From Minisyncoccota bacterium (lineage in GTDB: Bacteria; Patescibacteriota; Minisyncoccia; Phycocordibacterales; UBA2100), in the NCBI GenBank assembly GCA_036517195.1, contig DATDXU010000002.1:20635-84634 (forward strand): 64,000 nt of DNA. Direction: 5' to 3'. The position numbers were made by a program, and so were the translations under genes. Below, piece after piece: positions 10,463 to 33,043 of this stretch. Position 1 is the stretch's first letter. Each line of letters starts with the position of its first letter. A model generated the notes under the pieces. The model saw only the letters and a program-made list of their open reading frames with translations, was not told the DNA's origin and did no database searches.

Positions 10463-10509
10463 TCTTATACCACATCACAAAGGACGGTCTTTTTTGTATG
10501 CAAGTCTGA

Positions 10510-10534
10510 AATAACGACCCCGTAGGTCGTTATT
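10510..10534. repeat. small palindromic hairpin aataacgacc-ccgta-ggtcgttatt (member of the cgacc...ggtcg hairpin family)
   Basis: Inverted repeat read directly. It shares the core cgacc-N5-ggtcg with the hairpins at 11069-11097 and 23234-23262. Confidence 0.45.
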
Positions 10535-10628
10535 GTTGATGGATGGTATCAAGCCGTCGAACCATTACGAATCCTTGACAGATTGTATTATAATTTGCAT
10601 AATGTCTTTGGTGGTTCTAAGTTTTGTC

Positions 10629-10826
10629 ATGGAGGAGATGATGAAAGAGTCAACTCGCGGGAAAATTGTCGCAGTGAACGACAACGTCGTGTCCGTGAAA
10701 TTTGGGCGCGACATGTCGAATGAATCGCAGAGAACCGTATTCTATATTCCGCGAGAAGGGGTGGCAGAAATTCTACTAGATGTGTTTCCGGAAGGAATCA
10801 CACCGTCTCTCGCGAATAACAGGTAG
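10629..10826 (+). CDS. hypothetical small protein (65 aa)
   Basis: ORF starting MEEMMKESTRGKIVAVNDN..., with no recognisable motif. The coding call is weak. Confidence 0.3.
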   Translation: MEEMMKESTRGKIVAVNDNVVSVKFGRDMSNESQRTVFYIPREGVAEILLDVFPEGITPSLANNR

Positions 10827-11135: not shown

Positions 11136-11897
11136 TTATTGAGAACACCGAGTGTTTAGTTTTTTAAGCACGATAATTGTTTCTTCGGGTCCGGAGACCT
11201 GTCGCGTTTGTATCCCCGTTGGAATAACAGCGGCGTCGTTGCCTCCTTCATACAGCGCGTCTCCGATAAACAACATGTCTTTTGTTTCGACACCGAGACG
11301 GTTTGCCAGATAGCGAATGCCGTATGCCTTATCAATGCCTTTTCGCGTCATTTCAACAGTTGTGGTGCCGCCTATATGCACCTCACAGTCGGGCAGCGCT
11401 ACTTGGAGTTTTTTGTGCAAAGGAATCCGTTTTTTCTGGTCTGGGTCCCACGCTTCTTTTTCGACAATCGGCGCGTCAATACCGAGACCCGCAAACGCAA
11501 TTGCGGCACCTCGGTCATCAATACGTGGCCCCCACGAAGGCAACCCTTCCACAATTTTTAAATCCTCAATAATTTTTTGGAGCACGGAGGTGATGTGGGT
11601 GCATTCGCCTCGCGTGAACGCGTGGTTGTATAAGGTTTCATCGGCTCCGCCATTCCACAGATGACACTCCGCGGCGGCATTTGGAAATACATAGAATGAC
11701 GCCGTGTCCGTTTTTGGGAGACGAGACAGGAAATTTTTGTGAAGAATTGGAAACGCGCTCCCAGACATAATTGCCGCTGTTGTTTTGCCCGCAAGTGCTA
11801 TGAACAATTCTGACACCGATGCCTCAATCGGTTGTCGGCTTTTTGAAAGGGTGCCGTCAAAGTCAAACACGACTGCTTTTGGACATGCGTTACCCAT
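11136..11897 (-). CDS. HAD-superfamily hydrolase (IIB/Cof- or phosphomannomutase-like)
   Basis: Motif I VVFDFDGTLS (DxDGT) near the N-terminus; C-terminal FIGDALYEGGNDAA (motif IV). Confidence 0.75.
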   Translation of the reverse strand: MGNACPKAVVFDFDGTLSKSRQPIEASVSELFIALAGKTTAAIMSGSAFPILHKNFLSRLPKTDTASFYVFPNAAAECHLWNGGADETLYNHAFTRGECTHITSVLQKIIEDLKIVEGLPSWGPRIDDRGAAIAFAGLGIDAPIVEKEAWDPDQKKRIPLHKKLQVALPDCEVHIGGTTTVEMTRKGIDKAYGIRYLANRLGVETKDMLFIGDALYEGGNDAAVIPTGIQTRQVSGPEETIIVLKKLNTRCSQ

Positions 11898-11981
11898 GCA
11901 TACAAATATAGCACCATGTATTCTTTAAAAATTTTGCCCCCGCGTAAGCGGGGGCATGCGTGACTTTTTATAGCGTCGTTT

Positions 11982-12416
11982 CTATTTCTGTGTCTTTCTG
12001 TTTATCCAGCGGTATATAATCACCGCGCCTCCAACGGGATAACCGATTACAGGCATGCTGACAAGAAAAAGAATTCCGAAGTGTTCTTTATCGCCGTATA
12101 TTTGCGCAACAGCCGCTGTAATTACAGAAAAGACAGCGCAGAATACAACGGCGAGTAACACGAACGCCATCTGCCCGTGTGTTGTGCTCATCGCGAACAA
12201 GAGTAGCGGCAGTCCAAGTGAGGGAAGTCCACAGGATGCGATGTATCCACCGTGGGTGTGTGCCAAAATCACTATGCACGCCACGGATACGAACGCCATT
12301 ACACTCGCCACACGTGTCCACACATGCGCGTCTGGCGTTACATAGTCGTACGCGATTCCTCCCGCGAGGTTTTGCAAGAGGAATATTACCAGTCCCACCA
12401 ATCCGATTGCGCCCAC
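11982..12416 (-). CDS. hypothetical 4-TM membrane protein
   Basis: Four hydrophobic helices. GTG start at 12416 preceded by an aggag SD. Confidence 0.55.
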   Translation of the reverse strand: MGAIGLVGLVIFLLQNLAGGIAYDYVTPDAHVWTRVASVMAFVSVACIVILAHTHGGYIASCGLPSLGLPLLLFAMSTTHGQMAFVLLAVVFCAVFSVITAAVAQIYGDKEHFGILFLVSMPVIGYPVGGAVIIYRWINRKTQK

Positions 12417-12533
12417 GTGTTACTCCTATTCAACCTGTGCCTGCGTGTCATCTTAACAGACGATCTCTTTTACCCCCAGCAAACGCGCACCCCAGAGGTC
12501 CGACCTCGGGGGTGTCGTCCTTTTTGGGGCGTG

Positions 12534-12954: not shown

Positions 12955-12982
12955 CCCCGCCACACAAAGGCGGGGTGTTTTT
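12955..12982. terminator. bidirectional terminator hairpin ccccgcc-acacaaa-ggcgggg + T-run
   Basis: Lies between convergent genes 12615-12932 and dedA. Confidence 0.55.
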
Positions 12983-13604
12983 ATAGTAAAGGAGGTGGCG
13001 GGGGCGTTTGAGTTGCACGGTTATGTTTCCACCACTCATGTAGCAGGGGCATACAACTAACGACAACAATGAGGAGAACAATCAGTATGATGTAGCGCTC
13101 TATGCCCGGCACGACTTCTCCAAGGAAGTACCCCCCAAATGTGAACCCTCCGCCCCAGAGCACTGCTCCCGCAACGTTGTAGAGAAAGAATGTTCTGTAT
13201 TCCATTCCGCCGATACCTGCGAGAATGGGAGCGAATGTGCGCACAATCGGGACAAAGCGGGAAAAAAGAATTGTACGTGTTCCATATTTTTCATAAAAAT
13301 GTTTCGTTTTTTCCAGATATTGCTTTTTGAAAAAACGGGAATCTTCCCGAGCGAATAGTTTTGGCCCTACCCATGCGCCGAACCAATATCCTACAGCGTC
13401 TCCCGCGATTGCCGCAGTTATGATGAGCGGGAGCAGTATCCCTATATTAAAAAATCCTTGTGAGGCGAGAAGTCCTGCCGTAAAAAGGAGAGACGCTCCG
13501 GGCAAGATGGGTGCAAAAAATACTCCGGACTCCGCGAATACGACGGTGAAAATTCCCGTATATCCGATTGCTTGCGCGAGAAGAATAATGTCAATTCCAA
13601 ACAT
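12981..13604 (-). CDS. DedA/SNARE-associated family membrane protein
   Basis: Typical DedA motifs (FFAPILPGASLLFTAGLLAS ... FSRFVPIVRTFAP) with multiple TM helices. Confidence 0.85.
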   Translation of the reverse strand: MFGIDIILLAQAIGYTGIFTVVFAESGVFFAPILPGASLLFTAGLLASQGFFNIGILLPLIITAAIAGDAVGYWFGAWVGPKLFAREDSRFFKKQYLEKTKHFYEKYGTRTILFSRFVPIVRTFAPILAGIGGMEYRTFFLYNVAGAVLWGGGFTFGGYFLGEVVPGIERYIILIVLLIVVVSCMPLLHEWWKHNRATQTPPPPPLL

Positions 13605-13606
13605 AC

Positions 13607-14869
13607 TTATATAAAAGAGTTGGGGATAGGGAACGCTTTGCAGAGTGCCCTCACTTCTTCACGAATATCACCCAATTTTTTGCTGTCAGTGCGATTGTTG
13701 AGTGCCTCCACCATGAGTTCGGCAACACGGGCGCATTCTTTCTCACCGAATCCTCGTGTGGTGATGGCGGGAGTGCCGAATCGGATGCCGGACGGATCCA
13801 TTGGTTTTCTAGTGTCGTCCGCGATTGCGTTTTTGTTGAGCGTGATGCCCACGCGGTCGAGCACTTCCTCTGCCTCTTTGCCGCTGATACTAAGCGAGCT
13901 GAAAACATCCGCAAGTATCAAGTGGTTTGAAGTGCCACCCGTCAGCATGCGTATGTTGTGCTTGTGAAATACGGCTTCCATCGCCTTTGCATTTTTTAGA
14001 ATCTGCGAGGCGTATACCTTGAACGACGGATGGAGAGCTTCTCCAAAACACACAGCGCGCGCGGCGATTGCGTGCATTAAAGGTCCGCCTTGGAATCCGG
14101 GGAACACGGCTTTATCAATTTTCTTCGCTATGTCCTCGTTCTTATGCGTCAAAATCATGCCACCCCTGGGGCCGCGGAGTGTTTTGTGGGTGGTGGTAGT
14201 CATAACATCAAATCCATAGTCAAAAGGATTTTGTACCGCGTGTCCCGCAATAAGGCCCGCAATGTGTGCCACGTCCATAACAGCGTACGCGCCAACTTCG
14301 CGAGCGATTGCAACGAATTTTTTGTAGTCAAGTTCGCGCGGGTATGCGGAGTAGCCAGCGAGAATAATTTTTGGTTTGGTGCGTTTCGCAACAGCGCGCA
14401 TTTCTTCGTAATCAATTTCACCCGTGTCCGGATTTTTCATTTTGTATCGCACAAAAGTGAAAATTTTGGTGAGGTAAGTGACGGGGTGTCCATGAGTTAA
14501 GTGTCCGCCGTGCGAAAGGTCCATTCCCAACACCGTGTCGCCGGGGGAGAGAAGTGCAAAATACATAGCGATGTTTGCGTTGGCACCTGCGTGTGGTTGA
14601 ACATTGGCAAACGAGGCGCTAAAGAGTTTCTTGGCTCGTTCAATTGCAATTGTTTCTACGGCGTCCGTGTATTCTTGACCGCCATAATAGCGTTTGCCCG
14701 GATATCCTTCGGCGTATTTGTTGGTGAGAATTGAGGCAGTTGCTTCTCGGACGGCACGCGACACATAATTTTCAGAAGGAATGAGCTCCAGCCCATCGCG
14801 TTCACGCACCTCTTCTCCCTCAAGCGCTTCAAAAATTTCTCTGTCCTGTTTTTTAATGTGTTCGTACAT
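13607..14869 (-). CDS. glyA: serine hydroxymethyltransferase
   Basis: N-terminal MYEHIKKQDREIFEALEGE...LELIPSENYVS. The PLP-lysine region ...TTTTHKTLRGPRGG... is typical SHMT. Confidence 0.95.
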   Translation of the reverse strand: MYEHIKKQDREIFEALEGEEVRERDGLELIPSENYVSRAVREATASILTNKYAEGYPGKRYYGGQEYTDAVETIAIERAKKLFSASFANVQPHAGANANIAMYFALLSPGDTVLGMDLSHGGHLTHGHPVTYLTKIFTFVRYKMKNPDTGEIDYEEMRAVAKRTKPKIILAGYSAYPRELDYKKFVAIAREVGAYAVMDVAHIAGLIAGHAVQNPFDYGFDVMTTTTHKTLRGPRGGMILTHKNEDIAKKIDKAVFPGFQGGPLMHAIAARAVCFGEALHPSFKVYASQILKNAKAMEAVFHKHNIRMLTGGTSNHLILADVFSSLSISGKEAEEVLDRVGITLNKNAIADDTRKPMDPSGIRFGTPAITTRGFGEKECARVAELMVEALNNRTDSKKLGDIREEVRALCKAFPIPNSFI

Positions 14870-14872
14870 AGG

Positions 14873-15553
14873 TTATATTATTTTTCGTACTGCTCGGTAT
14901 ACCGCTTCGTGTATTGTGTCTCTCGACAGCACACCCCGCGTGTCAAAACAGGTTATTTTTTTCCATTGTGGGTTTTTGCGCAATAGACGCAGTGCGGCGT
15001 TTTGTGCCTCCGCAAGATGTTTTTGGTTTCGCTCCGCGAGGTCAAGAGTTTTTCGCGCGTTGGTGCGTTTTCTGTTGTTCAACAGAGATGTTGAAAGGCG
15101 GACGGGGAGGTGAAGGTAGAGGACGAGAGAGGGGCGAGGAATGCCAAGCGCTCCATGTTCCAGACGGTCGAGCCATGCAAAAAACCGTGCTCGCTCACGA
15201 GGATTTTTAATTTTTCCACCCTGATGCATTTGGTTGGCGCTCACATAGCGGTCCAAGACGACCGTGTATCCGGAAGAGAGCCACTGATCGAGCGGTTTCT
15301 TTGATTCAAAACGGTCCCCGGCGTAGAGAATGGATGCAAGATGGGGGTCGAGTGCGATAAAATTTCCAAACTCCCCAGCAAGGCATCGGCGCAATAGTCT
15401 GCCGAAAAAATTTTTTTCGTACTGCGGAAAGTCCATCGTTTTAACGCGAATCCCTTCTTTTTTGAGCCGTGTCACAAGAAGCTCTGTTTGTGTGCGTTTT
15501 CCGACTCCATCCGAGCCGTCCAAGACAATAAGTTTTCCCTTTTGTTGCACCAT
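14873..15553 (-). CDS. tmk: thymidylate kinase (dTMP kinase)
   Basis: P-loop LIVLDGSDGVGKRTQ. The gene is about 225 aa and adjacent to glyA and dedA, all on the minus strand. Confidence 0.85.
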   Translation of the reverse strand: MVQQKGKLIVLDGSDGVGKRTQTELLVTRLKKEGIRVKTMDFPQYEKNFFGRLLRRCLAGEFGNFIALDPHLASILYAGDRFESKKPLDQWLSSGYTVVLDRYVSANQMHQGGKIKNPRERARFFAWLDRLEHGALGIPRPSLVLYLHLPVRLSTSLLNNRKRTNARKTLDLAERNQKHLAEAQNAALRLLRKNPQWKKITCFDTRGVLSRDTIHEAVYRAVRKII

Positions 15554-15643
15554 ATAATTTTTCCAATTGTACTATGCCTTGCGAAAGTTACACACATCAC
15601 GCATTGTGTATCTCAGTTCAAACTGTGGAATTGGGTGGCGGGC

Positions 15644-16069
15644 ATGTCACTGGGCTCTGGTCTTACGCCGAAGGAGAGGGTAAAGAAAGCGTTGCGGTCC
15701 GTTTCTGCTTGTGCACCGAGGGCGGCGGCGGATTTGGATTCTAAACGCAAGAGAACCAAAGTGTTTAAACGCGGATGCGTTCAATACATTCAGTCTCTTG
15801 ACCGTGTTGGGAAAAAGATTGATCGCGAAATCGTGCGTGCCATACGGAAAGGGACATCCGACCTTTTCATTACGGTAGATTTTGAATTACGATTGCTTTT
15901 TGAATTACCGAGCTCGGTCAAATATACGATACCTCCAAGAGTCCAACCGACACTTCAGGAGCGAGTGTTGGGGCGCTGGATAAAGAAGCGTTACAAAGGT
16001 CTTGTGAAGTTTTATCGGAGGAATATTGATGGGGAACAGGTGACTCCAATGCGCATTTCTTGGCATTGA
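15644..16069 (+). CDS. hypothetical small basic protein, paralog A (141 aa)
   Basis: Aligns along its whole length with the next gene: LTPKERVKKALRSV vs LTPKQKLKAAASVV, KVFKRGCVQY vs KIFERVCEQY, and RVLGRWIKKRYKGLVKF vs RVLDPWVKSRYEGSVEF. Confidence 0.55.
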   Translation: MSLGSGLTPKERVKKALRSVSACAPRAAADLDSKRKRTKVFKRGCVQYIQSLDRVGKKIDREIVRAIRKGTSDLFITVDFELRLLFELPSSVKYTIPPRVQPTLQERVLGRWIKKRYKGLVKFYRRNIDGEQVTPMRISWH

Positions 16070-16088
16070 ACGCAACGTCCCCTATACT
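16060..16088 (+). promoter_or_regulatory. putative sigma70 promoter TTGGCA-17-TATACT for paralog B
   Basis: Overlaps the 3' end of paralog A, about 30 nt upstream of the ATG at 16120. Confidence 0.35.
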
Positions 16089-16119
16089 TAGTAGCAGTTG
16101 AATTTTTCGGAGGCGCATA

Positions 16120-16539
16120 ATGACTGACAAGCCACTTACGCCCAAACAGAAGTTAAAGGCAGCTGCCAGCGTCGTTAAGGAGCATCAAGAACAAGAAAGG
16201 CGTGCCAGAAAAAAAATTTTTGAACGGGTATGCGAACAGTACACGAAGCACTTGAATGACAACGCTGATGCAATTGACAACGAGCTTCAGGATTACATCA
16301 AGCGAGTGAGATTTCATATTCAGGTAGGGCGATCCGATATACTGCGGATTCCAGACGCCATTGAAAATCTTCTTGTGGGCACTGGAGTGAGGAAGGGGGA
16401 GGTATACAAAAGAGTTTTGGATCCATGGGTGAAGAGTCGTTATGAGGGGAGTGTCGAATTTCGCACACCCTCGCTTGACACACTCGGGGATATGCCAGAG
16501 CTTGTATTGAAAACGGACATCATGAATGGGGCGCGCTAA
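16120..16539 (+). CDS. hypothetical small basic protein, paralog B (139 aa)
   Basis: Good SD (ggaggcgcataATG). Paralogous to 15644-16069. Confidence 0.6.
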   Translation: MTDKPLTPKQKLKAAASVVKEHQEQERRARKKIFERVCEQYTKHLNDNADAIDNELQDYIKRVRFHIQVGRSDILRIPDAIENLLVGTGVRKGEVYKRVLDPWVKSRYEGSVEFRTPSLDTLGDMPELVLKTDIMNGAR

Positions 16540-16585
16540 CGGGTGCGCCTCTTTCTTTTTACTATCCACAGGAAGAGGCATCCGT

Positions 16586-17293
16586 ATGCTCTTTGCGCGG
16601 GAGGATAATGAGGATATGGCACTTTCGGATAGAAAAGTTCTTGCGAGCATGGACGATGGGTCTATCGTCATTGAACCGTTTGATAGGAGGAATCTTTCAA
16701 CATCAAGTTACGATGTAACGCTCGGCGAATATTATTTTACCGAGCAACACCCGAAACATTTTGAAAATTTATACAATATTTACGACAAATCACACGTGGA
16801 AAGGGTGTGGGGGACGGAGGCGCGCCGAGCGAAGAAGGCGGAGGAAGTATTGAAGAGATACACCATGAACTGGCGGGGCATTACGCCAGAGGAAAAGATA
16901 ATCTTGCTTGCTCCGGGGGAGACGATTTTGGCTCACACAAACGAATTTATCGGCGGGCGCGAGCACATAACGACGATGATGAAGGCGCGCTCATCTTTAG
17001 GGCGCAGTTTTATTTCTGTGTGCAAGTGCGCGGGGTGGGGGGACGTGGGGTACATCAACCGCTGGACCATGGAAATTAGTAATGTGTCCACACGCTACTA
17101 CATTCCGCTCGTTGTGGGGCGGCGTATTGCGCAAATTGTTTTTTTTGAAACTGGTCCAATTATGAATGCCGATTACGGAAAGAGTGGTAAATATCAATCT
17201 GAAGGAACGCTCGCGCAGGTGAAAAAAGAGTGGGTTCCCACCCTCATGCTTCCGCGCCTCTACCTTGACCGTGACATTAAGAAGAAAAAATAA
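16586..17293 (+). CDS. dCTP deaminase family protein (Dcd/dUTPase-fold) with an internal insertion
   Basis: N-terminal LSDRKVLASMDDGSIVIEPFD...SSYDVTLG matches Dcd (LSDRDI...IxPfd...ASYDLrLG). The catalytic region ARSSLGRS...WTMEISN is equivalent to Dcd Ser/Arg/Glu. The ATG at 16586 has an aggaag SD. Confidence 0.75.
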   Translation: MLFAREDNEDMALSDRKVLASMDDGSIVIEPFDRRNLSTSSYDVTLGEYYFTEQHPKHFENLYNIYDKSHVERVWGTEARRAKKAEEVLKRYTMNWRGITPEEKIILLAPGETILAHTNEFIGGREHITTMMKARSSLGRSFISVCKCAGWGDVGYINRWTMEISNVSTRYYIPLVVGRRIAQIVFFETGPIMNADYGKSGKYQSEGTLAQVKKEWVPTLMLPRLYLDRDIKKKK

Positions 17294-17314
17294 CACAGGG
17301 CTCAACTGCGTTGT

Positions 17315-18145
17315 ATGAATGTATATAACAATGTACTTCGGAAAATCATGGATGAGGGCATTGACCGAGAGGGGAGGAATGGTCAGACGCGGGCGATTTT
17401 TGCCCACCAAATACGTTTTAATCTTGATGATGGGTTTCCGGCCGTTACCACAAAAAAACTCGCCTTTTCTGTTGTAAAAGCGGAATTGCTCTGGTTTCTT
17501 GAAGGATCAAGCGACGATAATCGACTAAAAGAACTCTTGGGCGGTGCTAAGAAAACAATTTGGACGGATAATGCACACTCCTCATATTGGAAGCCAAAAG
17601 CCGCTTTTGAGGGCGATCTCGGGCGCATTTACGGCGTGCAGTGGCGCACGTGGAAAACAGCAGACGGGGAAGAGGTGGATCAACTGAGTTCTGTCATAGA
17701 AAAATTGAAACACAACCCGACCGACAGGCGACTTGTTGTGTCTGCGTGGAACCCGGGGGAGCTTGAGCAGATGGCGCTCCCGCCATGCCACATGCTGTTC
17801 CAGTTTTTTGTTGCGAATGGAAAACTCTCGATTCATATGATTCAGAGAAGTTGTGATCTTTTTTTGGGGGTTCCATTTAATATCGCTTCGTACGCCCTAC
17901 TTCTTTCTATGGTTGCTCATGTTACCAATCTCAAACCTCACGAGTGTATTTTGACCCTGAACGATGCACACATCTACCACGACCATTTTGAGCAAGTAAA
18001 AGAACAACTGGGGCGAACCCCACTTCCCCCGCCTCGCCTGTGGCTCAATCCGGATATACACGGTATAGATGATTTTGGTATGGACGATATACGACTGGAG
18101 AACTACCAAAGTCATCCTGCGATTCCGGCAAAAATGCTCGTGTAA
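17315..18145 (+). CDS. thyA: thymidylate synthase
   Basis: Near-identical spacing to E. coli ThyA: ...MALPPCHMLFQFFVANGKLSIHMIQRSCDLFLGVPFNIASYALL... Confidence 0.95.
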   Translation: MNVYNNVLRKIMDEGIDREGRNGQTRAIFAHQIRFNLDDGFPAVTTKKLAFSVVKAELLWFLEGSSDDNRLKELLGGAKKTIWTDNAHSSYWKPKAAFEGDLGRIYGVQWRTWKTADGEEVDQLSSVIEKLKHNPTDRRLVVSAWNPGELEQMALPPCHMLFQFFVANGKLSIHMIQRSCDLFLGVPFNIASYALLLSMVAHVTNLKPHECILTLNDAHIYHDHFEQVKEQLGRTPLPPPRLWLNPDIHGIDDFGMDDIRLENYQSHPAIPAKMLV

Positions 18146-18147
18146 GT

Positions 18148-18654
18148 ATGGCGCGAGTGAGTATTATTGCGGCGTGTGGAGCTTCGACGCGAGCGCTTGG
18201 AAAAAACAACACGCTTCTCTGGCACATACCAGAAGATTTGAAACGCTTTAAGCGTCTCACGCTCGGGCATCCCGTTATCATGGGACGCAAAACATTTGAA
18301 TCAATTGTGAGCTACCTCGGAAAACCTCTTCCTGGGCGCACCTCAATTGTTTTAACAAAGAATTCAAATAACGATTTACGAAATCGTTATGAGGTGGTAA
18401 TCGCGGGGTCACTGGAAGAGGGAATTAAGAAAGCGAAAGAATTGGATGACGAGGAAATTTTTATCGTGGGAGGCGCTTCCGTGTATGAACAGGCGCTTCC
18501 ACTCGCGGATCGCCTGTATCTCACGCTTGTTGAGGACGAGAAAGAAGGAGATACGTATTTTCCACCGTATGAGAATGTGTTTACAAAAATTGTGTCCGAA
18601 GAGGGTCACGTGTGGCAGGGAATTAGTGTTAGGTTTCTCGTGCTTGAGAGGTAG
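18148..18654 (+). CDS. folA: dihydrofolate reductase
   Basis: MARVSIIAACGASTRALGKNNTLLWHIPEDLKRFKRLTLGHPVIMGRKTFESI is typical DHFR. Confidence 0.92.
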   Translation: MARVSIIAACGASTRALGKNNTLLWHIPEDLKRFKRLTLGHPVIMGRKTFESIVSYLGKPLPGRTSIVLTKNSNNDLRNRYEVVIAGSLEEGIKKAKELDDEEIFIVGGASVYEQALPLADRLYLTLVEDEKEGDTYFPPYENVFTKIVSEEGHVWQGISVRFLVLER

Positions 18655-20943: not shown

Positions 20944-20983
20944 AAAATAAAAAACAACCCCCACTTCTGCCTCGAAATGGGGG
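20944..20983 (-). terminator. rho-independent terminator after the repeat-protein gene
   Basis: On the minus strand, hairpin cccccatttcgaggcagaagtggggg is followed by ttgttttttattttt. Confidence 0.65.
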
Positions 20984-20991
20984 TATGTGTT

Positions 20992-21570
20992 CTACTGTTT
21001 TTTTCCTCCCTCGTCTTCCTCTGTCTCAATGCAAGACCACACGGCGAAGGATCTTTTTTTGTCTCCTGCCTGTTGCCAGAATGCGACACAGATAACATTT
21101 TCAGCGTACTTCTTTGCATATTGCACAACAAAACCAATGCCATGTTGGGCTTTCATACCGGCATTCTGATATGCCAAGCCAATGACTTGTCCGGCGTACT
21201 CACCAGCATTCTGGTATGCCACACCAATGAACTGATAGGCCTCCTTACCAACATTTTGATATGTCAGACCAAGTCCTTGCCAGGCGTCCTGACCGGCATT
21301 CTGGCATCCGACATGTATAACAGCAAGCGCGTTTTTTTTGGCGTTTTGGTATACAGAGAACAGTGAGATAAGGTCTCCTTCTGAATACGCGTTACCGGCG
21401 ATCGTAAACACAGTGTTACCGGTTGTGACTGGTGCGCATAGCGCCGCAATCAGCAATGTGGTTGTAGCGGTGACGGAGAGCGTTTGGTCTCCCATTAACC
21501 ACCAAGCCACGAGAGAATACAAAATTGTGGATAGTAGCCACAAAAAAATGTTTTTTGCCGCGACACTCAT
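20992..21570 (-). CDS. membrane-anchored protein with about six tandem 15-residue repeats (consensus Y-Q-N-A-G-x-x-A-x-Q-x-I-G-[LV]-A)
   Basis: N-terminal TM segment(s) followed by repeats with QN[AV] at residues spaced exactly 15 apart. This corresponds to 45-nt DNA repeats at about 21100-21370. Start chosen at the ATG with a ggggag SD (MSVAAK...); the ORF is open to 21588. Confidence 0.55.
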   Translation of the reverse strand: MSVAAKNIFLWLLSTILYSLVAWWLMGDQTLSVTATTTLLIAALCAPVTTGNTVFTIAGNAYSEGDLISLFSVYQNAKKNALAVIHVGCQNAGQDAWQGLGLTYQNVGKEAYQFIGVAYQNAGEYAGQVIGLAYQNAGMKAQHGIGFVVQYAKKYAENVICVAFWQQAGDKKRSFAVWSCIETEEDEGGKKQ

Positions 21571-21669
21571 TTTCAAGCTCCCCTGCATCCATATTCATTT
21601 CCAAAAGCTTTGTATCATCAGATGTTTGAGTTGTCAAGAAAAAGATTCCATCGCCCAAGTTCGATGGAA

Positions 21670-22497
21670 TCATAGTTTCGTACGCAGTCGAGAGTGTATC
21701 TGAAGGTCAATTTTGATGTCCTCGTTCAGGACAGCAAGCATGCGTTGCCGTCTTTTTTCGTTCCGCTTGTGTGTACGAAGAGTTTCCCAATTTCCTGAAA
21801 ATACCTCATCTGCAAATCCGAATCGCACTGCCTCACGAGGACCAAGCCATACGTTGATTTTGTCCCTCAGCTTGTCTTCAAGGAGTCTTAGGATTTTTTG
21901 TTCGCCCCATTTTTTGTATGCCCCTTGTTCTTTGAGACGCGCTACATACAAAAGGAGCATACGTTCTGATGCCATGCGCCGCTCGCTGTCTTCGGCGTTC
22001 GCCTCTTGTTCAAGACCGTGGAACGAGAATTCACCGAAGTGGTACATAAACCGAGCCGTAGCGTCCAGAACAAACTTGTCTGCCGCGAGAGGGACAATAG
22101 ACGACATGGAACGTGCCCACCTGCGAGCGAGTACGGTAATTGGGTTCGGACATGCAAGAATTGAGGAAAATATTTGCATTCCCGATTCCCAGTCGCCTCC
22201 GCATGTGGACATGTCGACAAGAATGGGCCTTTCAGGATTAATGCCACTCAAGACGCTCAAGCTTCTTGCAAACTCGTTTGCCATGGTCGGATTGATGCCC
22301 GACTCACTCACGTGTTCGGCATCTTCAGGGTCAACATCCCGCGTGTGGAGGTATGCGATGAATTGCGCGCGATCTATTCTGTAGTCGTGAACGTCTCCTA
22401 AGGCAAAGTCTCCCAGAAGAGCTTTTGCCGGTGCCTCTTCGTGTGGTGTTCCAACGGTCGATCTTTTCTTACGCAGACGCTTTTTACGGGTTTCCAT
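21670..22497 (-). CDS. ClpP-fold (S14-like) serine protease-like protein, non-canonical
   Basis: ILVDMSTCGGDWESGMQIFSSI...ARRWARSMSSIVPLAAD...RFMYHFGEF aligns with ClpP INSPGG...GQAASMGA...RIMIHQP. Candidate catalytic Ser and His are present. The N-terminus is basic, and the length (275 aa) exceeds canonical ClpP. Confidence 0.55.
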   Translation of the reverse strand: METRKKRLRKKRSTVGTPHEEAPAKALLGDFALGDVHDYRIDRAQFIAYLHTRDVDPEDAEHVSESGINPTMANEFARSLSVLSGINPERPILVDMSTCGGDWESGMQIFSSILACPNPITVLARRWARSMSSIVPLAADKFVLDATARFMYHFGEFSFHGLEQEANAEDSERRMASERMLLLYVARLKEQGAYKKWGEQKILRLLEDKLRDKINVWLGPREAVRFGFADEVFSGNWETLRTHKRNEKRRQRMLAVLNEDIKIDLQIHSRLRTKL

Positions 22498-22599: not shown

Positions 22600-23133
22600 T
22601 TAAGTTTTGTGTTTGACTTTTTTGCGCTTTAGATACCACGCAATCGGATATCGTTTACCGGAAGTTGGATCTTTTCTTGTTCGCAAGTCATTACACAACA
22701 GGGAACGGGATATGGTATAGAGGGTTGTTTTGGTGAAAGGGTAATTTGCTATCCTAAACTTTTTTCCTGCGATTGGCATACCAATGATAAGCACAATATG
22801 GATGAGCCAATTTTTGTGTATGTTCCAATCTTCCTTTTTGCGCCACTGATAGCATAGAACAACGGCACCACCGTGCTCCACATGTTTTGCAATCTTTTCA
22901 ATACGCGGATGTTTATCTGTGCGTATAGTGAAATATGTTGCACCAAGAGCGTGTAAGGTTTTTGAAATATCTCTTGCCTTTGTTCCACCAAGTAATCTGG
23001 AGTAGTGGGTGTGTGCTCTTATCTTTTTTAAACTTCGATACGCCAAAGGTGCTCCTGCCCACTTCAGTGCATTTAATATGACGATAGGACCGCAATCAAA
23101 CCTACCTCGTTGACGAAAATAGCGGATTGTCAT
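22600..23133 (-). CDS. papain-fold C39-like cysteine peptidase domain protein
   Basis: Q...DCGP motif (FRQRGRFDCGPIVILNALKWAG) as in C39/C39-like peptidases. A downstream candidate catalytic His lies in HIVLIIG. Confidence 0.55.
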   Translation of the reverse strand: MTIRYFRQRGRFDCGPIVILNALKWAGAPLAYRSLKKIRAHTHYSRLLGGTKARDISKTLHALGATYFTIRTDKHPRIEKIAKHVEHGGAVVLCYQWRKKEDWNIHKNWLIHIVLIIGMPIAGKKFRIANYPFTKTTLYTISRSLLCNDLRTRKDPTSGKRYPIAWYLKRKKVKHKT

Positions 23134-26606: not shown

Positions 26607-27758
26607 ATGGCACTCCTATGGTATTCTCCCTTTGTTGATCTTATAGCTTTGATTGGAGGTCCGTGCGGAGGGAAATCCACGGCTCTTGTGAAAGCGCGCT
26701 CATATCTTGAGAAGTATGGTATTCCAGTCTTTACACTCACAGAAACCCCAACTGAACTTATTGACGCAGGATTTTCTCCGCGAGCGGAAGATTGGTATTA
26801 TCAGACAGATTTTCAAAAGCACGTACTGCGGTACACGCTTGCGCGAGAGAATAGGTACATAGAAATGATTAAGGACCTGCATCTCAACCGTAAGGCAGTG
26901 CTTTTGTGCGATCGGCCTGTGTTTGGCGGAAGAGTTGCCTATATGTCGAAAGAGGAACACGATGCGCTTTTGACACGCGAAGGACTTTCTCTTGATGTAC
27001 TACTACATCGTTATCGTGCCGTTTTGCATCTTGTAACAGCTGCCGAGGGTGCTGAAAAGTATTATACGCTCGCGAACAACATGGCTCGAAAGGAAACAGC
27101 AGAAGAGGCGCGTGCGCTGGACAAGAGAACCATTGAATCGTGGAGTGGGCACCCCCGCGCCCACATCATTGATAACAGTACCGACTTTTCTGGTAAGATG
27201 CGTCGTTTTCAACAACTATTAGCAAGGAGTTTGGACATGCCAGAACCACTTGAGAAAGAGCGTTGGTTCGTCGTGTTGAATTTTCGTCCTGATTTTATTC
27301 CGGCAGGCACACCGCGAATGTACATTGTTCAGGATTACCTTAAGAGCTCCCCTAAGGTTGAGAGGCGAGTGCGCAGTCGTACTCTTTTTGGGGCGACACG
27401 TTTTTTCTACACGGAAAAAAGGCCGACCCTTGCTGTGGGCGAGCGCATCGAGGTGGAGCGGGAGATATCGGAGGCGGAGTATCGTGCACTTCTCACAGAT
27501 ACCACTGCATCCGTGACAAAAACTCGCTGGGGTATTCCATACGAAGGACATCATATGGAATTGGATGAATTTTACCAACCGATTTCAGGTCTTCATAAGC
27601 TCGAGATAGAGGTAGCTGACATGAAAGACCCAGTCACAATTCCTCCAGAGTGGAATGTGGTTGAAGTAACGGGAAATGCTCGTTTTGGTAGTCGCGGTAT
27701 TGCAACGGGTTCGCTTGGGTGCGGATTTTTCGTGCCCAGAAAATACGGACTTCTATAA
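26607..27758 (+). CDS. P-loop NTPase/kinase (AAA_28-like) fused to a C-terminal CYTH (triphosphate tunnel metalloenzyme) domain
   Basis: Walker A LIGGPCGGKST at the N-terminus. The C-terminal half begins EKERWFVVLNF, the CYTH ExExK signature, with conserved acidic/basic tunnel residues downstream. SD is aaagaagg. Confidence 0.65.
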   Translation: MALLWYSPFVDLIALIGGPCGGKSTALVKARSYLEKYGIPVFTLTETPTELIDAGFSPRAEDWYYQTDFQKHVLRYTLARENRYIEMIKDLHLNRKAVLLCDRPVFGGRVAYMSKEEHDALLTREGLSLDVLLHRYRAVLHLVTAAEGAEKYYTLANNMARKETAEEARALDKRTIESWSGHPRAHIIDNSTDFSGKMRRFQQLLARSLDMPEPLEKERWFVVLNFRPDFIPAGTPRMYIVQDYLKSSPKVERRVRSRTLFGATRFFYTEKRPTLAVGERIEVEREISEAEYRALLTDTTASVTKTRWGIPYEGHHMELDEFYQPISGLHKLEIEVADMKDPVTIPPEWNVVEVTGNARFGSRGIATGSLGCGFFVPRKYGLL

Positions 27759-27886: not shown

Positions 27887-30800
27887 ATGATTCGACATCG
27901 AGAAGGGTCTCTCGCTTTTTTTGTTAAGTTCTGTATTTTCAGTATTTGTTTTCTCGCGGTATTTGCATTCTATACAACGTTCGTTCAGGCTGGCGTTTTT
28001 CAATTTGCAGACGGAGACCCGAAGCATCTGCGCGCGCTCTCGCTCGCTGCGGTAGAGGGAGCGGAAGCGGAGATCGATGTTGCGGAGAAAATCAATCTCG
28101 ACGAGAACTACACGCCGGAAGATTTCGGTATCGATAATCTCGGATTTCTTCCGAACAACCCGCTCTATGTGTTCAAAAGTTTGCGTCGTAGTGTAACATC
28201 TGCATTCACGTTTGACCCTGTTTCTCAAGCAGAATTGAAATTACAATTTGCGGCGGAAAAACTTTTGGAAGCGAAAGAATTGGCTGGGAGAGAGGGGGTA
28301 AGTGAAGGAACTATTACGCGTGCGCTCCAAAATTACGAAGACGAACTTGCGGGGATTGATAGGGAGGTGAGAGACGTGGGGAGTGCTGATCCAGAGCAAT
28401 CACTGGAGCTGGCGAGTACCGTCATGGATTCCATGACGAAGTATCAAAAAATGCTCGGCTCTTTTGACAAATCACTTTCTTCGGAATCGTTTGACACAGT
28501 GCAGGACATAAAAGACGCAACCGCGGAAACGTTTGGGGCTGTCTTTACCTTGGGAGAAGCTGGAGCAATTTCGGAAGAACTTGTCTCCGTTCTTGACACG
28601 CAATCAGGTTCCGAATTCAAGCATTTCAAAAACGCGGAAATATTGAAAGAACTAAGCGATAAAGCGCCTGTTGACGCTCACGAAGCACTGCAAGACGTAG
28701 AAGATAATGTGCTCAATAAACTGCAGGTGCAACTGGAGCAGTCTGACGCCGCGCAAAAAGCTATATTCAGCGATTTCGTGCAGGAAATAGGTGGCAGTGA
28801 AGTTCGTCACATTGAGGTCATTAATGAGCTTGAGGTACGACCTATTTCTGATGATGTTCGAGACGCTATTTCGGGTGTGAAAGAGGGGGTGTTGGCAAAA
28901 ACAGAAGATCGTCTTGAGGCATTTACGCCCGAGCAAAAAGAAAAATTTCTCGGGCACCTCGTCGGAGGCACTCTTGAGAACATCCGCGTCATTAAAGAGA
29001 TTGAAAACAGTGTTGCCGCGGGTGTGTTTGCTGGAATTGAAAAAGTAAAAACTCAAGCAACGGAGCAGTTCAAACAAAATATTGAGGAAGCGGGCACGAA
29101 CGATGAGCGCAAACAGGAGTTTACCAACTCAATCGAACGTTTTCACGATGCGAAGTCCATCTCGGTTCTTGAAGAAATAGGCGCGCTGATTCCGGACGAT
29201 AAGAAAGAGTTTTTTAACACACTCAAGCAGAAGGCTGCGCAAGAAATCAGGCGGGATATTGATGGCGCACGAAATGCCACGCAACGACAAGTTATTTACA
29301 AATCGCTTTCTGGAGACCACCCGGAAGATGTTGCCGCGCTAGAAAGCTTTGAAGGAGATATCGGGATATCAAGCTCTATGCGGGGAGTTTTGGACGCGCT
29401 TCGCGCTACGCAATATGGCCGCGTACAGAATCGTGCCGCGAATATTACGGACGCGAGCCGTTTGGAGAAATTTGAACAAGAATATCAAAAATACGAAACA
29501 TCGTTTGACGAGGCGCCGACTGGAACACGTCTCGAATCAACATTCAGAGACAGGAAAAATGTTTTCGATTCTCCGGATCGCGCGTACGACAAAATCGCGG
29601 AAGCGCGCGCCGCGCTCACAAAGCTTGAAAGTGTTGTAGATACCCTTCCGTTTGACGTCGGGTTTGAAGACGGACATTTTGACCCCGCGATTCAAGAAAT
29701 TGAGCGTATGCGCGCGGCGGCAGAAAAGAAACTGGGAGTTGCCGAAACATCGCTTGAATACAACGACGTGGGGCGGGCATTCGGAGAAGCGCAAGCCGCT
29801 CTTCAAATGGCGAAAAACGGCCTCTCCATGGCAACAGGATACAAGCAGGGAAGAAAGCAAGAAAAACAAGTGCTCGATTTCCTTCCAAAAGATTTCTATC
29901 AAAACGATACGGCTGTTCGTCCGAGTGTTACGGAAGGATTCAATTTGTACAATGCGTATGAGTTCAGTCAGTTCTGCGCGTTCACGGGCGGTTTCTTGAA
30001 AGGAAAGACACGCTGTGATTTTGCTGACGGACGATCTCTCGAAGTTCCGGGTGGCGCGTTTCCGTTCAGAATTCCACCCGAATTTGTTCCACAAAATGTA
30101 GTTCAAAAAGAAACAGATGGAAAACCGATTCCAGTCGGATGTCCTTCTGTGCCACCAACGTTTGGGAATTTCTGCGCGGGTGGAAAAATTGTGGATCAGT
30201 TTGACAGGAGGGGGTGTCAAATCGCGCCTCGTTGTGAATACAAAAATGTTGAAGATATGCCAATTCGTCCTGGGCTCGATCCAATCGATATGGAACGCAA
30301 ACTGCACCCAACTGATCCGACGCTCTGTGGTAGCTTCCAGGGGTATCAATGTCGCGAGGGGTACTACTGTGAGTATCCGAAAGACACCCGCTCTACCGAT
30401 GCGTTTGGAAAATGTGTAAAAGGAAACGAACAGGTAACCTGTCAGGCGTACTTCACCGGTTGGGTTTACGAAGCGAGCGCGAAAGGAGGAAGCCAGTGCG
30501 TGCAAAAGAGTGTTACCGGATGTACCAACCCATTCGTTTATATTTCGAAAGAGCAATGTGAACGCGGGCAAAACACAGACCCAAATACATATGAGGGAGA
30601 CGCGAATTCGTGCCCTGGATTTGCCTATAGTGCGTGGGATAAGAAGGGGGTACGTTATTGTCAACTCAATACGGAATACAGGTGTGATTACAATTATCCA
30701 AGTTACTTAACGAATGGAGCAAACTACAAGGCGGAAAATTGTCCGGCAGATTTGGTGACGGTGTATTGCGATTCCTACACCACAGAAAGTTCCTGCAAGA

Positions 30801-33043
30801 CGATAGCAACCTGTCAGTGGGGGATTCCATCGGGCGAAAGTGCAAAAAGATGTTATGTGTCTGGCAAGACGGGGATGTGTCCTTCAATGCCGACGGTGTC
30901 CAGTTGTCCGGCAGGGCAGAAAAGGGTAGTTTCATGGAGCTCACCTGAATGCGGTGAATACCATACGTGTATGAACGATACGCCGACCACGGACCAAACG
31001 TGGACACAAACCACATGGAAGTTCACTGACGGCGAACAAACGTCTATGATTCTCGACCGCTTAGACGCCGAGTATCAAAATTACTTGGCGCCTATTCGCG
31101 CGCAGTGTCTCACGATTTCCAAAGCGAAGTTTACATGGAGACAGGGCGCGGGAGATGATAGCGCAACAAACTGGAGAAACTTTGGTATTCCAGATTGTTC
31201 CGGTACGGCGACCACTAATTACCAATGTGGCAACAACATGTGTGAGATGAATGAAACGGCCCAATCGTGCCCGACTGATTGTGGTAGCACGGGAGGCGGA
31301 TGTGGCTGGTACATGAACGAAACGGCGTGTAAAACGGTGAACGGTTGTTCGTGGACCGCGATGTCCAGCAATTCGAATGGCGGATACTGCGCGCCGACAA
31401 GTACCAACTGGACACCACAGTGTTCCGACGGTAAAGACAATGACAGCGATGGAAAAATTGATTATCCAAACGATGCTGGTTGCTACGGCAAGACGGACGA
31501 CATGGAATCGGACAGCTTTGGGGGCGAGAGCGGTATGCGTCGCTGTTTTTACCCAAACACAACGAAAGGCGGCACGCACGTCGGGTGGACTATTTGGTGC
31601 GAGTCAGATTATGTGAATTGTCACTATGGAGACCCAGCTGGGAAAGTGTTTGATACTGCCGGTGCCTCTCTTGGTGCTCCATCAAGTTGCGAAAGCGGTC
31701 TTGGTGGAGGGTCAGGTGGCGGATGCGGCATATATATGACAGACGCAACATGTAAGGCCATGTCTGCATGCCGCTGGGCGACGGGTACTTCCGGTGGAGG
31801 ATACTGTGAACCGATACCCACGACATCAGGCGCGATGCAGTGTTCCGACGGCAAAGACAACGACAGTGATGGGCAAATTGATTATCCGGCTGACACCGGC
31901 TGTTACAGCAAAGAAGACCCAGACGAAGCGTATGCGGGGACTGGGACGACCTATGTGGGAGACGCAAATTCTTGCCCGAGCTTTGCCTACAGCAGATGGG
32001 ATACAAAAGGTGTCAGGTACTGTCAGCTTAATGCAGAGCGAAAGTGTGATTATAACTATCCAAGCTACATAACGAATGGCGCGAATTATAAAGCGGAAAG
32101 CTGTCCGGTAACTGATTCCACGATCACCACTACTGCTACGATGAGTTGCATGGGTACCTATACAACACAGACATCGTGTCAGAGCGCGGGATGCACGTGG
32201 TTTGCCAGTCACTATGACGGTACGCACTGTGATAACGCGGCGCATGGAAGTTCAGGCACTGGCACCAACTCTTCACAGTATGGCTCGTGCGCGAATTACA
32301 CCTCGCAATCATCATGCACAAGTGTCACAAACTGCAAGTGGTTTACCGGTTCAGGGTCTGGGAATACGTCGTACTGCTATTACGAGAGCGGAACATCAGG
32401 TTCCTCGTGTTCTTCTGGACAGTATTGGAACGGTAGCGCATGCGTTACCTCTACAACAACCGGAACTACATGCCAAACGGGTCAATACTGGAACGGGAGT
32501 AGTTGTGTCACGTCTTCAACGACGCAGTATTCTTCGGATCCAGCGACCGCGTGCGCGCAGGGGGGCGGCTCATGGAACAGTTCGACAAGTTATTGCACAA
32601 TGTCGAATTCATCCGCATGTACATCAGGTCAATATTGGAACGGTAGCGCGTGTGTTACTTCTTCAACAACGGGGTCTTCATGCCCATCGGGCCAGTGGTG
32701 GAATGGTTCAAGTTGTGTGAATACATCCACGACAGATTGTCCGTCGGGGCAATACTGGAGTGGCTCAAGCTGTGTCACCAGCTCTTCCTCAACCACAGAT
32801 TATTCCAGCATGCAGTCGTCGTGCGCGTCTGCCGGTGGCACGTGGGATTCTACAAGCAACTATTGCCAGATGCCATCAACCTCAAGTTCGTCTTCTTCAA
32901 CATCGTGTCCGTCTGACCAATATTGGAACGGTAGCTCGTGCGTAACAACATCTTCGTCTGATACCACCTCTTCGTACACTCCACCCCCTTCAACAGACAC
33001 AACAACTACGTACACACCACCCCCTACAACAACGACCCCCTAA
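27887..33043 (+). CDS. giant (1718 aa) secreted/cell-surface cysteine-rich modular protein
   Basis: Single 5.1-kb ORF.
- N-terminal signal-anchor (FFVKFCIFSICFLAVFAFY).
- About 700 aa of acidic helical region.
- A duplicated Cys-rich module (GGGCGxYM..T.CK....C.W......GGYC.P......QCSDGKDNDSDGxIDYPxDxGCY...D.DE, then Y[EV]GDANSCP[GS]FAYS.WD.KGVRYCQLN.E.KCDYNYPSY[LI]TNGANYKAE[NS]CP).
- Six tandem copies of C-x-SGQYWNGS-x-CV-(S/T)n.
- An S/T/P-rich tail. Confidence 0.85.
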   Translation: MIRHREGSLAFFVKFCIFSICFLAVFAFYTTFVQAGVFQFADGDPKHLRALSLAAVEGAEAEIDVAEKINLDENYTPEDFGIDNLGFLPNNPLYVFKSLRRSVTSAFTFDPVSQAELKLQFAAEKLLEAKELAGREGVSEGTITRALQNYEDELAGIDREVRDVGSADPEQSLELASTVMDSMTKYQKMLGSFDKSLSSESFDTVQDIKDATAETFGAVFTLGEAGAISEELVSVLDTQSGSEFKHFKNAEILKELSDKAPVDAHEALQDVEDNVLNKLQVQLEQSDAAQKAIFSDFVQEIGGSEVRHIEVINELEVRPISDDVRDAISGVKEGVLAKTEDRLEAFTPEQKEKFLGHLVGGTLENIRVIKEIENSVAAGVFAGIEKVKTQATEQFKQNIEEAGTNDERKQEFTNSIERFHDAKSISVLEEIGALIPDDKKEFFNTLKQKAAQEIRRDIDGARNATQRQVIYKSLSGDHPEDVAALESFEGDIGISSSMRGVLDALRATQYGRVQNRAANITDASRLEKFEQEYQKYETSFDEAPTGTRLESTFRDRKNVFDSPDRAYDKIAEARAALTKLESVVDTLPFDVGFEDGHFDPAIQEIERMRAAAEKKLGVAETSLEYNDVGRAFGEAQAALQMAKNGLSMATGYKQGRKQEKQVLDFLPKDFYQNDTAVRPSVTEGFNLYNAYEFSQFCAFTGGFLKGKTRCDFADGRSLEVPGGAFPFRIPPEFVPQNVVQKETDGKPIPVGCPSVPPTFGNFCAGGKIVDQFDRRGCQIAPRCEYKNVEDMPIRPGLDPIDMERKLHPTDPTLCGSFQGYQCREGYYCEYPKDTRSTDAFGKCVKGNEQVTCQAYFTGWVYEASAKGGSQCVQKSVTGCTNPFVYISKEQCERGQNTDPNTYEGDANSCPGFAYSAWDKKGVRYCQLNTEYRCDYNYPSYLTNGANYKAENCPADLVTVYCDSYTTESSCKTIATCQWGIPSGESAKRCYVSGKTGMCPSMPTVSSCPAGQKRVVSWSSPECGEYHTCMNDTPTTDQTWTQTTWKFTDGEQTSMILDRLDAEYQNYLAPIRAQCLTISKAKFTWRQGAGDDSATNWRNFGIPDCSGTATTNYQCGNNMCEMNETAQSCPTDCGSTGGGCGWYMNETACKTVNGCSWTAMSSNSNGGYCAPTSTNWTPQCSDGKDNDSDGKIDYPNDAGCYGKTDDMESDSFGGESGMRRCFYPNTTKGGTHVGWTIWCESDYVNCHYGDPAGKVFDTAGASLGAPSSCESGLGGGSGGGCGIYMTDATCKAMSACRWATGTSGGGYCEPIPTTSGAMQCSDGKDNDSDGQIDYPADTGCYSKEDPDEAYAGTGTTYVGDANSCPSFAYSRWDTKGVRYCQLNAERKCDYNYPSYITNGANYKAESCPVTDSTITTTATMSCMGTYTTQTSCQSAGCTWFASHYDGTHCDNAAHGSSGTGTNSSQYGSCANYTSQSSCTSVTNCKWFTGSGSGNTSYCYYESGTSGSSCSSGQYWNGSACVTSTTTGTTCQTGQYWNGSSCVTSSTTQYSSDPATACAQGGGSWNSSTSYCTMSNSSACTSGQYWNGSACVTSSTTGSSCPSGQWWNGSSCVNTSTTDCPSGQYWSGSSCVTSSSSTTDYSSMQSSCASAGGTWDSTSNYCQMPSTSSSSSSTSCPSDQYWNGSSCVTTSSSDTTSSYTPPPSTDTTTTYTPPPTTTTP

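Follow-up and report, generated by a model that had tools for sequence, protein, structure and literature searches.

The 64,000-nucleotide stretch of Minisyncoccota DNA analysed here (contig DATDXU010000002.1, positions 20,635 to 84,634; hereafter the window, in whose own numbering all coordinates are given) carries on its minus strand, at 20992 to 21570, a gene for a small repeat protein that is filed here as a new family inside the known class of beta-solenoid repeat proteins. The family is unnamed and so far found only in the Parcubacteria/Paceibacterota of the Patescibacteria, or candidate phyla radiation (CPR). It is now defined in sequence as well as in predicted structure, comprising at least 183 sequence clusters without a Pfam or NCBIfam model, and its members combine a helical membrane anchor with a capped beta-solenoid of 15-16-residue coils carrying a tyrosine ladder. 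The family probably functions as an extracytoplasmic envelope scaffold or binding rod. Nothing is overturned by these findings: the class of fold is a familiar one, and the function is something that we only infer. The CPR makes up a large share of bacterial diversity and is mostly uncultured, and its genomes are full of unannotated membrane proteins; with about 190 residues, the protein offers a small expressible target for studying how the envelope of such cells is built and decorated, as well as a compact solenoid repeat for the catalogue of repeat-protein design and a lineage marker.

The gene and its repeats

The minus-strand open reading frame (ORF) spans 20992..21588 and encodes 198 residues. 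Its upstream in-frame ATG at 21588 would add six residues to the protein but overlaps the Shine-Dalgarno site. Given the spacing of that site, the start of the gene-caller product P0001 (192 residues) at the ATG at 21570 and the alignment of the conserved family N-terminus with the same codon (family alignment A1), the start is therefore placed at 21570. The Shine-Dalgarno site and the good terminator with which an earlier note, written by a model from the letters alone, had credited the gene are both present, the latter as a hairpin running from 20984 to 20957:

20992..21570, minus strand: coding sequence of the repeat protein, 192 residues plus a TAG stop codon at 20992-20994 (ORF list, gene-caller product P0001, family N-terminus, family hidden Markov model (HMM))
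21578..21583, minus strand: Shine-Dalgarno-like GGGGAG, 7 nt 5' of the ATG at 21570 (direct reading of the sequence)
20957..20984, minus strand: intrinsic terminator-like hairpin with a T-run, 11-bp stem with 6 G-C pairs, 8 nt past the stop codon (terminator scan, sequence)
21644..21671, minus strand: terminator-like hairpin closing the upstream ClpP-like gene (terminator scan)
21037..21351, minus strand: seven 15-residue repeat units, residues 74-178, beginning at Y74, C89, Y104, Y119, Y134, V149 and F164, the last two being degenerate and forming the C-terminal cap (register, lag-15 statistics, AlphaFold2 model, C-cap consensus in alignments A1 and A2)

Because terminator-like hairpins lie on both of its sides, the repeat gene looks like a transcription unit of its own. 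No sigma-70-type promoter was detected for it, and promoters in the CPR may differ.

A plus-strand ORF at 20977-21366, to which the earlier note had drawn attention as a possible better-supported gene, does exist opposite the repeat gene, and its length of 129 residues speaks for it. However, the homologs of the minus-strand protein reach E 1e-39, the antisense frames over the homologous genes are interrupted in most relatives, and the Shine-Dalgarno site and the flanking terminators belong to the minus strand. The plus-strand ORF was therefore rejected as a true gene and is a shadow of the minus-strand ORF, which is a real, conserved gene.

With respect to the repeats, six to seven QN[AV] motifs at exact 15-residue spacing had been claimed. 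The periodicity stands: comparison of the protein with itself gives 33/115 identities at lag 15 and 31 at lag 30, and of 5000 shuffles, in each of which the maximum over lags 3-39 was taken, none reached 33 (mean 14.5, standard deviation 1.6, highest 23). The number of exact units, however, has to be lowered to five, the remaining two (VQYAK and FWQQAG) being degenerate. In the numbering of the 198-residue ORF the register reads YQNAK(80), CQNAG(95), YQNVG(110), YQNAG(125), YQNAG(140), VQYAK(155) and FWQQAG(170). Lags 4, 7, 8 and 11 are also raised in the protein, which is due to an AxQxxG half-repeat. The proposed DNA period of 45 nt was likewise recovered, though in diverged form, with 46% identity at lag 45 as compared to about 22-28% at other lags. 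With this identity, and with no repeat reported by Tandem Repeats Finder in the DNA of the gene, the repeats are old and diverged and not the result of a recent DNA duplication.

Relatives and family layout

A word-indexed protein search with the single sequence as query returned only the self-match, and the family surfaced only in an exhaustive HMMER scan over 1.84 billion cluster representatives, with 183 relatives at E<=1e-3 and 73 at E<=1e-10. Conservation of the ORF, named beforehand in the earlier note as a test of its proposal, is thus seen in at least 183 cluster representatives. The match to P0101, a eukaryotic-looking repeat protein of 721 residues, was discarded as spurious and due to low complexity; all other relatives have 100-300 residues. 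The repeat had not been recognised at the outset, and it indeed matches no curated family: neither Pfam nor NCBIfam gave a match for the window protein or a consistent family over 64 members. The 40 members from a second profile search all lack a Pfam domain and are named only 'hypothetical protein', and every named member of the family bears this same label and comes from Paceibacterota or Patescibacteria. The labels of the metagenome-assembled genomes are Candidatus Paceibacterota, Yanofskybacteria, Giovannonibacteria, Harrisonbacteria and 'Patescibacteria group', the sources being groundwater or sediment metagenomes; the 273-kb scaffold of the window is recorded from the Rifle aquifer metagenome. 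A scan of viral contigs found no relative, and no earlier description of the family emerged from literature searches.

Family members begin with M-x-N-[IL]-x-L-F, followed by a hydrophobic helix of about 21 residues, a K/R-rich loop, and a short second hydrophobic helix that ends at an invariant Pro. Then come the N-cap, with the consensus PxNINGNVFTVxGNAxSEKxVYSxFSxYQ, 3-11 repeats, and a C-cap with the consensus YQRVGxKxRAFxxFSxL. The repeats have 14-16 residues, the commonest unit being a 16-mer (747 units) of the canonical form Y-Q-[KRN]-A-G-x-[DN]-A-[VI]-[TV]-x-[ILFV]-G-[LIV]-[AS]-G; with Q as the anchor (100%), these 747 units have Y1 in 60%, A4 in 70%, A8 in 67% and G13 in 77% of cases. 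The window protein aligns with the family from end to end (family HMM, E 2.8e-62) and contains all architectural elements. It deviates in its period of 15 residues, a variant of the usual 16, in a T-rich helix 2 and in a loop without K/R. The family HMM matches no other ORF of the 64-kb window, in which the protein hence has no paralog.

Some family members (P0062, P0118 and P0142) have [YFW]Q every 8 residues, not every 15-16, so that both half-repeats carry the aromatic-Gln pair. Judged by sequence, this spacing supports the idea that the coil may be derived from a duplicated unit of 7-8 residues. At one locus (L024, contig SDBV01000032.1) there are two paralogs of 215 residues each, at 10001-10645 and 11874-12518 on the same strand, 1.2 kb apart and with two small genes between them; all other loci seen are single-copy.

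Predicted structure

Structure prediction, which the earlier note had proposed as a check, was carried out with AlphaFold2. The model of the window protein, made with a 40-sequence family alignment, has a predicted local distance difference test score (pLDDT) of 95.4 and a predicted template modelling score (pTM) of 0.84, and P0004, a member with 16-residue repeats, is predicted to have the same plan at period 16 (pLDDT 95.2, pTM 0.85). With high confidence, the models predict two N-terminal hydrophobic helices followed directly by a capped beta-solenoid with one coil per repeat. The elements outside the repeats are:

21493..21564, minus strand: helix 1, residues 3-26, with a 21-residue uncharged transmembrane segment, NIFLWLLSTILYSLVAWWLMG, that starts with the conserved Asn of the family (AlphaFold2/DSSP at pLDDT 96-97, hydropathy, family median 21)
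21436..21480, minus strand: helix 2, residues 31-45, short and hydrophobic, ending just before the invariant Pro47 (AlphaFold2/DSSP; Pro47 invariant in alignments A1 and A2)
21334..21429, minus strand: N-terminal cap coils, residues 48-79, VTTGNTVFTIAGNAYSEGDLISLFSVYQNAKK (alignments A1-A3, AlphaFold2 strands)
20995..21024, minus strand: C-terminal tail TEEDEGGKKQ, acidic or charged, modelled as disordered with low confidence, and not conserved (pLDDT dropping to 71 in the penultimate and 50 in the final 10-residue block; alignment A1)

The N-terminal transmembrane region of the earlier note can thus be retained as a hydrophobic membrane anchor, which is, however, predicted to be a hairpin-like element of two helices and not a single transmembrane segment. 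At least 90% of members share Asn7, and the N-cap is the most conserved part of the family, with P47, T56, G59, N60, S69, S72, Y74 and Q75 invariant or nearly so (A1, A2, A3). Its predicted strands comprise residues 48-50, 53-58, 61-63 and 67-77. From residue 48 onwards, the window protein is modelled as 13-residue strand blocks with 2-residue breaks, in phase with the 15-residue repeat; across both models the blocks have 13-14 residues and the separations 2. The models contain neither a coiled coil nor a barrel, and the protein ends 10 residues past the solenoid. Its tandem repeats of constant length, each predicted to form one coil of a parallel beta-helix, place the protein in the beta-solenoid class, which is defined by structure and not by homology. 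Including the conserved N- and C-cap coils, the models predict with high confidence a rigid rod of about 9-10 coils and roughly 45 Angstrom, and the same high confidence applies to a range of about 5-14 coils in the family.

Taken by themselves, strand blocks of 13-14 residues with 2-residue gaps could also describe the hairpins of an antiparallel meander, laid out as a flat sheet or closed into a small barrel or pore. However, the identity and common register of the repeats are in keeping with parallel stacking, and such a meander, or else the plus-strand ORF as the real gene, must be regarded as extremely unlikely.

The model was compared with known structures including the Marinomonas antifreeze protein 3p4g, phi29 gp12, TpsA and autotransporter helices, and MinC, at identities of 2-15%. 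Right-handed helices (4i84, 7kob, 6n2b, 1rwr and MinC) superpose on it with a root-mean-square deviation (rmsd) of 1.9-3.8 Angstrom, and left-handed ones (3ult, LpxA/GlmU and YadA heads) give a high Z but an rmsd of 7-12 Angstrom; in the model, this hints at a right-handed coil. Foldseek found nothing in the PDB at E<=0.001, and a search of the PDB sequences with the family profile gave one insignificant match (E 3.9). The fold class is thus clear, but in view of these low identities and null searches there is no close solved relative.

Comparison with known beta-solenoid proteins

By fold and style of repeat, the nearest systems are the YadA-type heads, the curlin repeats and the ryegrass ice-binding protein; by architecture, and perhaps also by setting, they are the membrane-anchored DUF4097 (LiaG-like) beta-helix proteins, and the nearest cytoplasmic alternative is provided by the bactofilins and MinC. 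The defining sequence models of the YadA, curlin, DUF4097 and bactofilin/MinC proteins are not matched, and their accessory features (barrel anchor, secretion system, cap-less polymerisation) are absent.

In particular, the head models of the YadA-like trimeric autotransporter adhesins YadA, UspA1, BoaA and BpaC (YadA_head/Hep_Hag) find no match in Pfam searches of the window protein at E<=1 or of 64 members at E<=5. In contrast to these adhesins, the repeat protein has no coiled-coil stalk and no C-terminal beta-barrel anchor, is held by N-terminal helices in the cytoplasmic membrane, and belongs to a CPR host and not to a proteobacterium; the rmsd of 7-9 Angstrom to YadA heads suggests a different twist or handedness. 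The putative DUF4097 adhesins (Bacillus LiaG/YvlB; 3jx8, 3ljy, 3pet) differ in repeat length and motif, and none of 64 members matches DUF4097; the two-helix anchor and the lack of lia/psp-type neighbours are further differences. Bactofilins and MinC are small right-handed beta-helices that act as membrane-associated scaffolds, and MinC superposes at 1.9 Angstrom over 73-74 residues. However, bactofilins use a short amphipathic membrane-targeting peptide and polymerise, whereas the repeat protein uses hydrophobic helices, and neither the bactofilin (DUF583) nor the MinC Pfam model matches the window protein or the 64 members.

The earlier note had left the choice between a beta-solenoid and a fibre, of which the confident models of two members support the solenoid. 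As a membrane-tethered, amyloid-like subunit, the protein might stack end-to-end or side-by-side with others into surface filaments or sheets like curli CsgA. The repeat is rich in Gln/Asn/Gly/Ala, its surface is partly hydrophobic (repeat positions 9 and 11), and the YQxAG...AxQ pattern recalls curlin repeats. However, CsgA has repeats of 19-23 residues (Sx5QxGxGNxAx3Q) as compared to 15-16 here, is secreted through CsgG and forms open-ended amyloid, whereas every subunit of the present family would carry its own membrane anchor as well as distinct, conserved and charged caps at both ends (C-cap YQRVGxKxRAF). Such caps normally block end-to-end stacking and argue against an open-ended fibre. 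In addition, the curlin-repeat model (Curlin_rpt) matches neither the window protein nor any of the 64 members, the neighbours are housekeeping or cell-wall genes and not csg-like ones, and no CsgB/E/F/G-like partner is conserved nearby, so that a fibre subunit is quite improbable.

Even less probable, and hardly to be entertained, is a cell-surface-anchored ice-binding or antifreeze protein, to which only the similarity in fold to 3p4g and to the Lolium perenne ice-binding protein 3ULT might point. The latter, a plant protein, is secreted and has no membrane anchor, its half-repeat is XXNXVXG, unlike the AxQxxG of the repeat protein, and the two share 8% identity at an rmsd of 7.6 Angstrom. 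Over the comparisons made, no more than 6-9% of residues are identical, and the high rmsd to 3ult, of 7.6-8.0 Angstrom, suggests that the likeness is merely generic and possibly one to a mirror-image fold. Moreover, ice-binding faces are of a Thr/Ser/Ala type, whereas the ladder exposed here would consist of Tyr/Lys/Arg/Asn. All members come from groundwater or sediment metagenomes not known to freeze, and there are no grounds in the source environment for expecting ice binding.

Genomic context of the family

The order ychF, repeat gene, rpsF-ssb is found in five distinct sequences, mnmA adjoins the gene in six, and the order ftsW-ABC, repeat gene, mraY-dacA occurs at three loci. MurC is encoded next to the gene at one locus and three genes away at another, ddl lies two genes away in one case, and enolase is the neighbour in another arrangement. 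In the window, uppP lies 80 bp downstream. Within the same loci, peptidoglycan genes make up 13/121 genes within three positions of the repeat gene as compared to 6/201 further out (Fisher p 0.005), a link that is weak and suggestive only. None of the neighbours in the window (ClpP-like protein, 177-residue ORF, UppP, cytidylyltransferase, M14 peptidase) recurs beside the relatives.

Of note, at the Yanofskybacteria-type loci L038, L041 and L021 (e.g., L012:936-6727), genes for FtsW/RodA and an MsbA-like ABC exporter precede a divergent solenoid gene, and the block, which is conserved in genomes of this type, continues convergently with MraY, a D-Ala-D-Ala carboxypeptidase and AspRS, Ddl being found further on. 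The ABC exporter between ftsW and mraY might be a transporter of lipid-linked precursors.

Membrane topology and possible function

Topology statistics were obtained over 140 members. The median N tail is 2 residues long, with a net charge of -0.26. The inter-helix loop, with a median of 12 residues, contains 3.4 K/R at a net charge of +2, and in 121 of the 140 members it exceeds the N tail in K/R. The uncharged length of helix 1 has a family median of 21 residues and the hydrophobic stretch before the Pro one of 10, while about 15 further uncharged residues, those of the first coil, follow helix 2 with its invariant Pro, which makes some 25 uncharged residues in all. By the positive-inside rule, the K/R-rich loop would be cytoplasmic and the N-terminus outside, and helix 2 would return the chain so that the solenoid would come to lie on the outer face of the membrane. 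The conservation of the N-terminal Asn would then make sense, since this residue would be a neighbour of the N-cap, both being on one side of the membrane. A lipoprotein was rejected, as the residue in front of the conserved Cys before the Pro is Leu and not Gly/Ala/Ser and this Cys is absent from several members, as was a Sec signal peptide, the N tail having only 2 residues and not being basic.

The reading preferred here, the chances of which appear about evenly balanced, is that of a small integral membrane protein presenting an outward-facing capped beta-solenoid as an envelope scaffold or binding rod. A structural role is favoured by the lack of a catalytic motif and of a cytoplasmic domain and by the ladder-like surface; there is probably no enzymatic role. 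Judged by strand alternation, the thin core would be composed of the invariant Gln, Ala4, Ala8, Gly16, Thr/Gln10 and Ile12. One exposed, flat face would display Tyr1 (60%), Lys/Arg/Asn3 and Ser/Ala15, that is, a Tyr ladder beside a polar or basic one, and the other positions 7, 9 and 11, of which 9 and 11 would mostly form a hydrophobic stripe. Among family members the median net charge of the solenoid domain is +2, which makes it slightly basic. The Tyr/basic face might bind a partner of periodic build, for example peptidoglycan or some other polymer of the wall or surface, an S-layer or a partner protein, and the hydrophobic face might serve self-association or contact with a partner, while the conserved charged caps would block open-ended polymerisation.

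A more specific version, which is speculative and unlikely as a whole, would make the protein a lineage-specific and vertically inherited envelope 'ruler' of the Parcubacteria/Paceibacterota, a rigid rod rooted in the cytoplasmic membrane. Its Tyr/basic ladder would bind glycan strands or a wall polymer made by the neighbouring lipid II machinery (MraY, FtsW, MurC, UppP) and thereby organise or space wall synthesis or an attachment surface in these ultra-small episymbiotic cells, the 3-11 repeats setting the length of the spacer.

A number of observations weigh against an outward-facing scaffold or rod. The loop of the window protein is GDQ and thus devoid of K/R, and its N tail carries a Lys. 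Helix 2 is short, its hydrophobic residues numbering about 10 in most members and its helical ones 15 in the window protein, so that a full membrane crossing is not certain. Which residues point inward or outward, how many sides the coil has and how the helices lie relative to the solenoid are points that we infer, and no member has a functional annotation. In addition, the gene is usually a separate unit whose neighbours vary between lineages, so that its context is mostly not conserved, and nine of the 13 nearby peptidoglycan genes come from a single synteny class. Finally, vertical, single-copy and housekeeping-like synteny is atypical of fast-evolving adhesins.

Some of these points would equally suit a solenoid of the same fold on the cytoplasmic side. 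Here helix 1 would be the sole true span (N-terminus out, C-terminus in), helix 2 a re-entrant or interfacial half-helix, and the solenoid a scaffold like the bactofilins or the C-terminal beta-helix of MinC, perhaps positioning proteins of wall synthesis or division. A hydrophobic stretch ahead of the invariant Pro with a median of just about 10 residues would be in line with such a half-helix, and the housekeeping-like, single-copy vertical synteny with ychF/rpsF, mnmA and mraY/ftsW/murC and the presence of Cys in the solenoid of about half of the members would suit a cytoplasmic location. However, the 25 or so consecutive uncharged residues of helix 2, Pro and first coil could cross a bilayer, the conservation of the N-terminal Asn is hard to explain if this residue is isolated across the membrane from the rest, the Pfam models of bactofilin and MinC find no match in any member, and the structural match to MinC is short and generic. 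A cytoplasmic solenoid is considered possible, if rather unlikely.

Other features of the window

Further genes of the window, which surround the repeat gene at varying distance, are:

21670-22497, minus strand: ClpP-like upstream neighbour, 275 residues, with a long K/R-rich N-terminal extension (Clp_protease E 1e-11, a weak match, and faint matches to SDH-type and NfeD-type proteases)
22600-23133, minus strand: ORF of 177 residues without a Pfam family, its RepL match being sub-threshold
26607-27758: AAA_28 ATPase gene, just upstream of the 1718-residue ORF
27887-33043, plus strand: very large ORF of 1718 residues, with DUF5667 as the only Pfam match on record
about 12981-18650: compact thymidylate and one-carbon cluster with a DedA/VTT membrane protein, SHMT, thymidylate kinase, dCTP deaminase, thymidylate synthase and DHFR (Pfam annotations of the source scaffold)

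In the whole of the 64-kb window ARAGORN found neither tRNA nor tmRNA genes, nor did any Rfam family attain its gathering score. By its sequence, the ClpP-like neighbour would be an atypical stand-alone ClpP/S49-like peptidase with a terminator of its own. The N-terminus of the 177-residue ORF, GRFDCGPIVILNAL, gives the impression of a motif which we take to be that of a small papain-type or C39-like cysteine peptidase.
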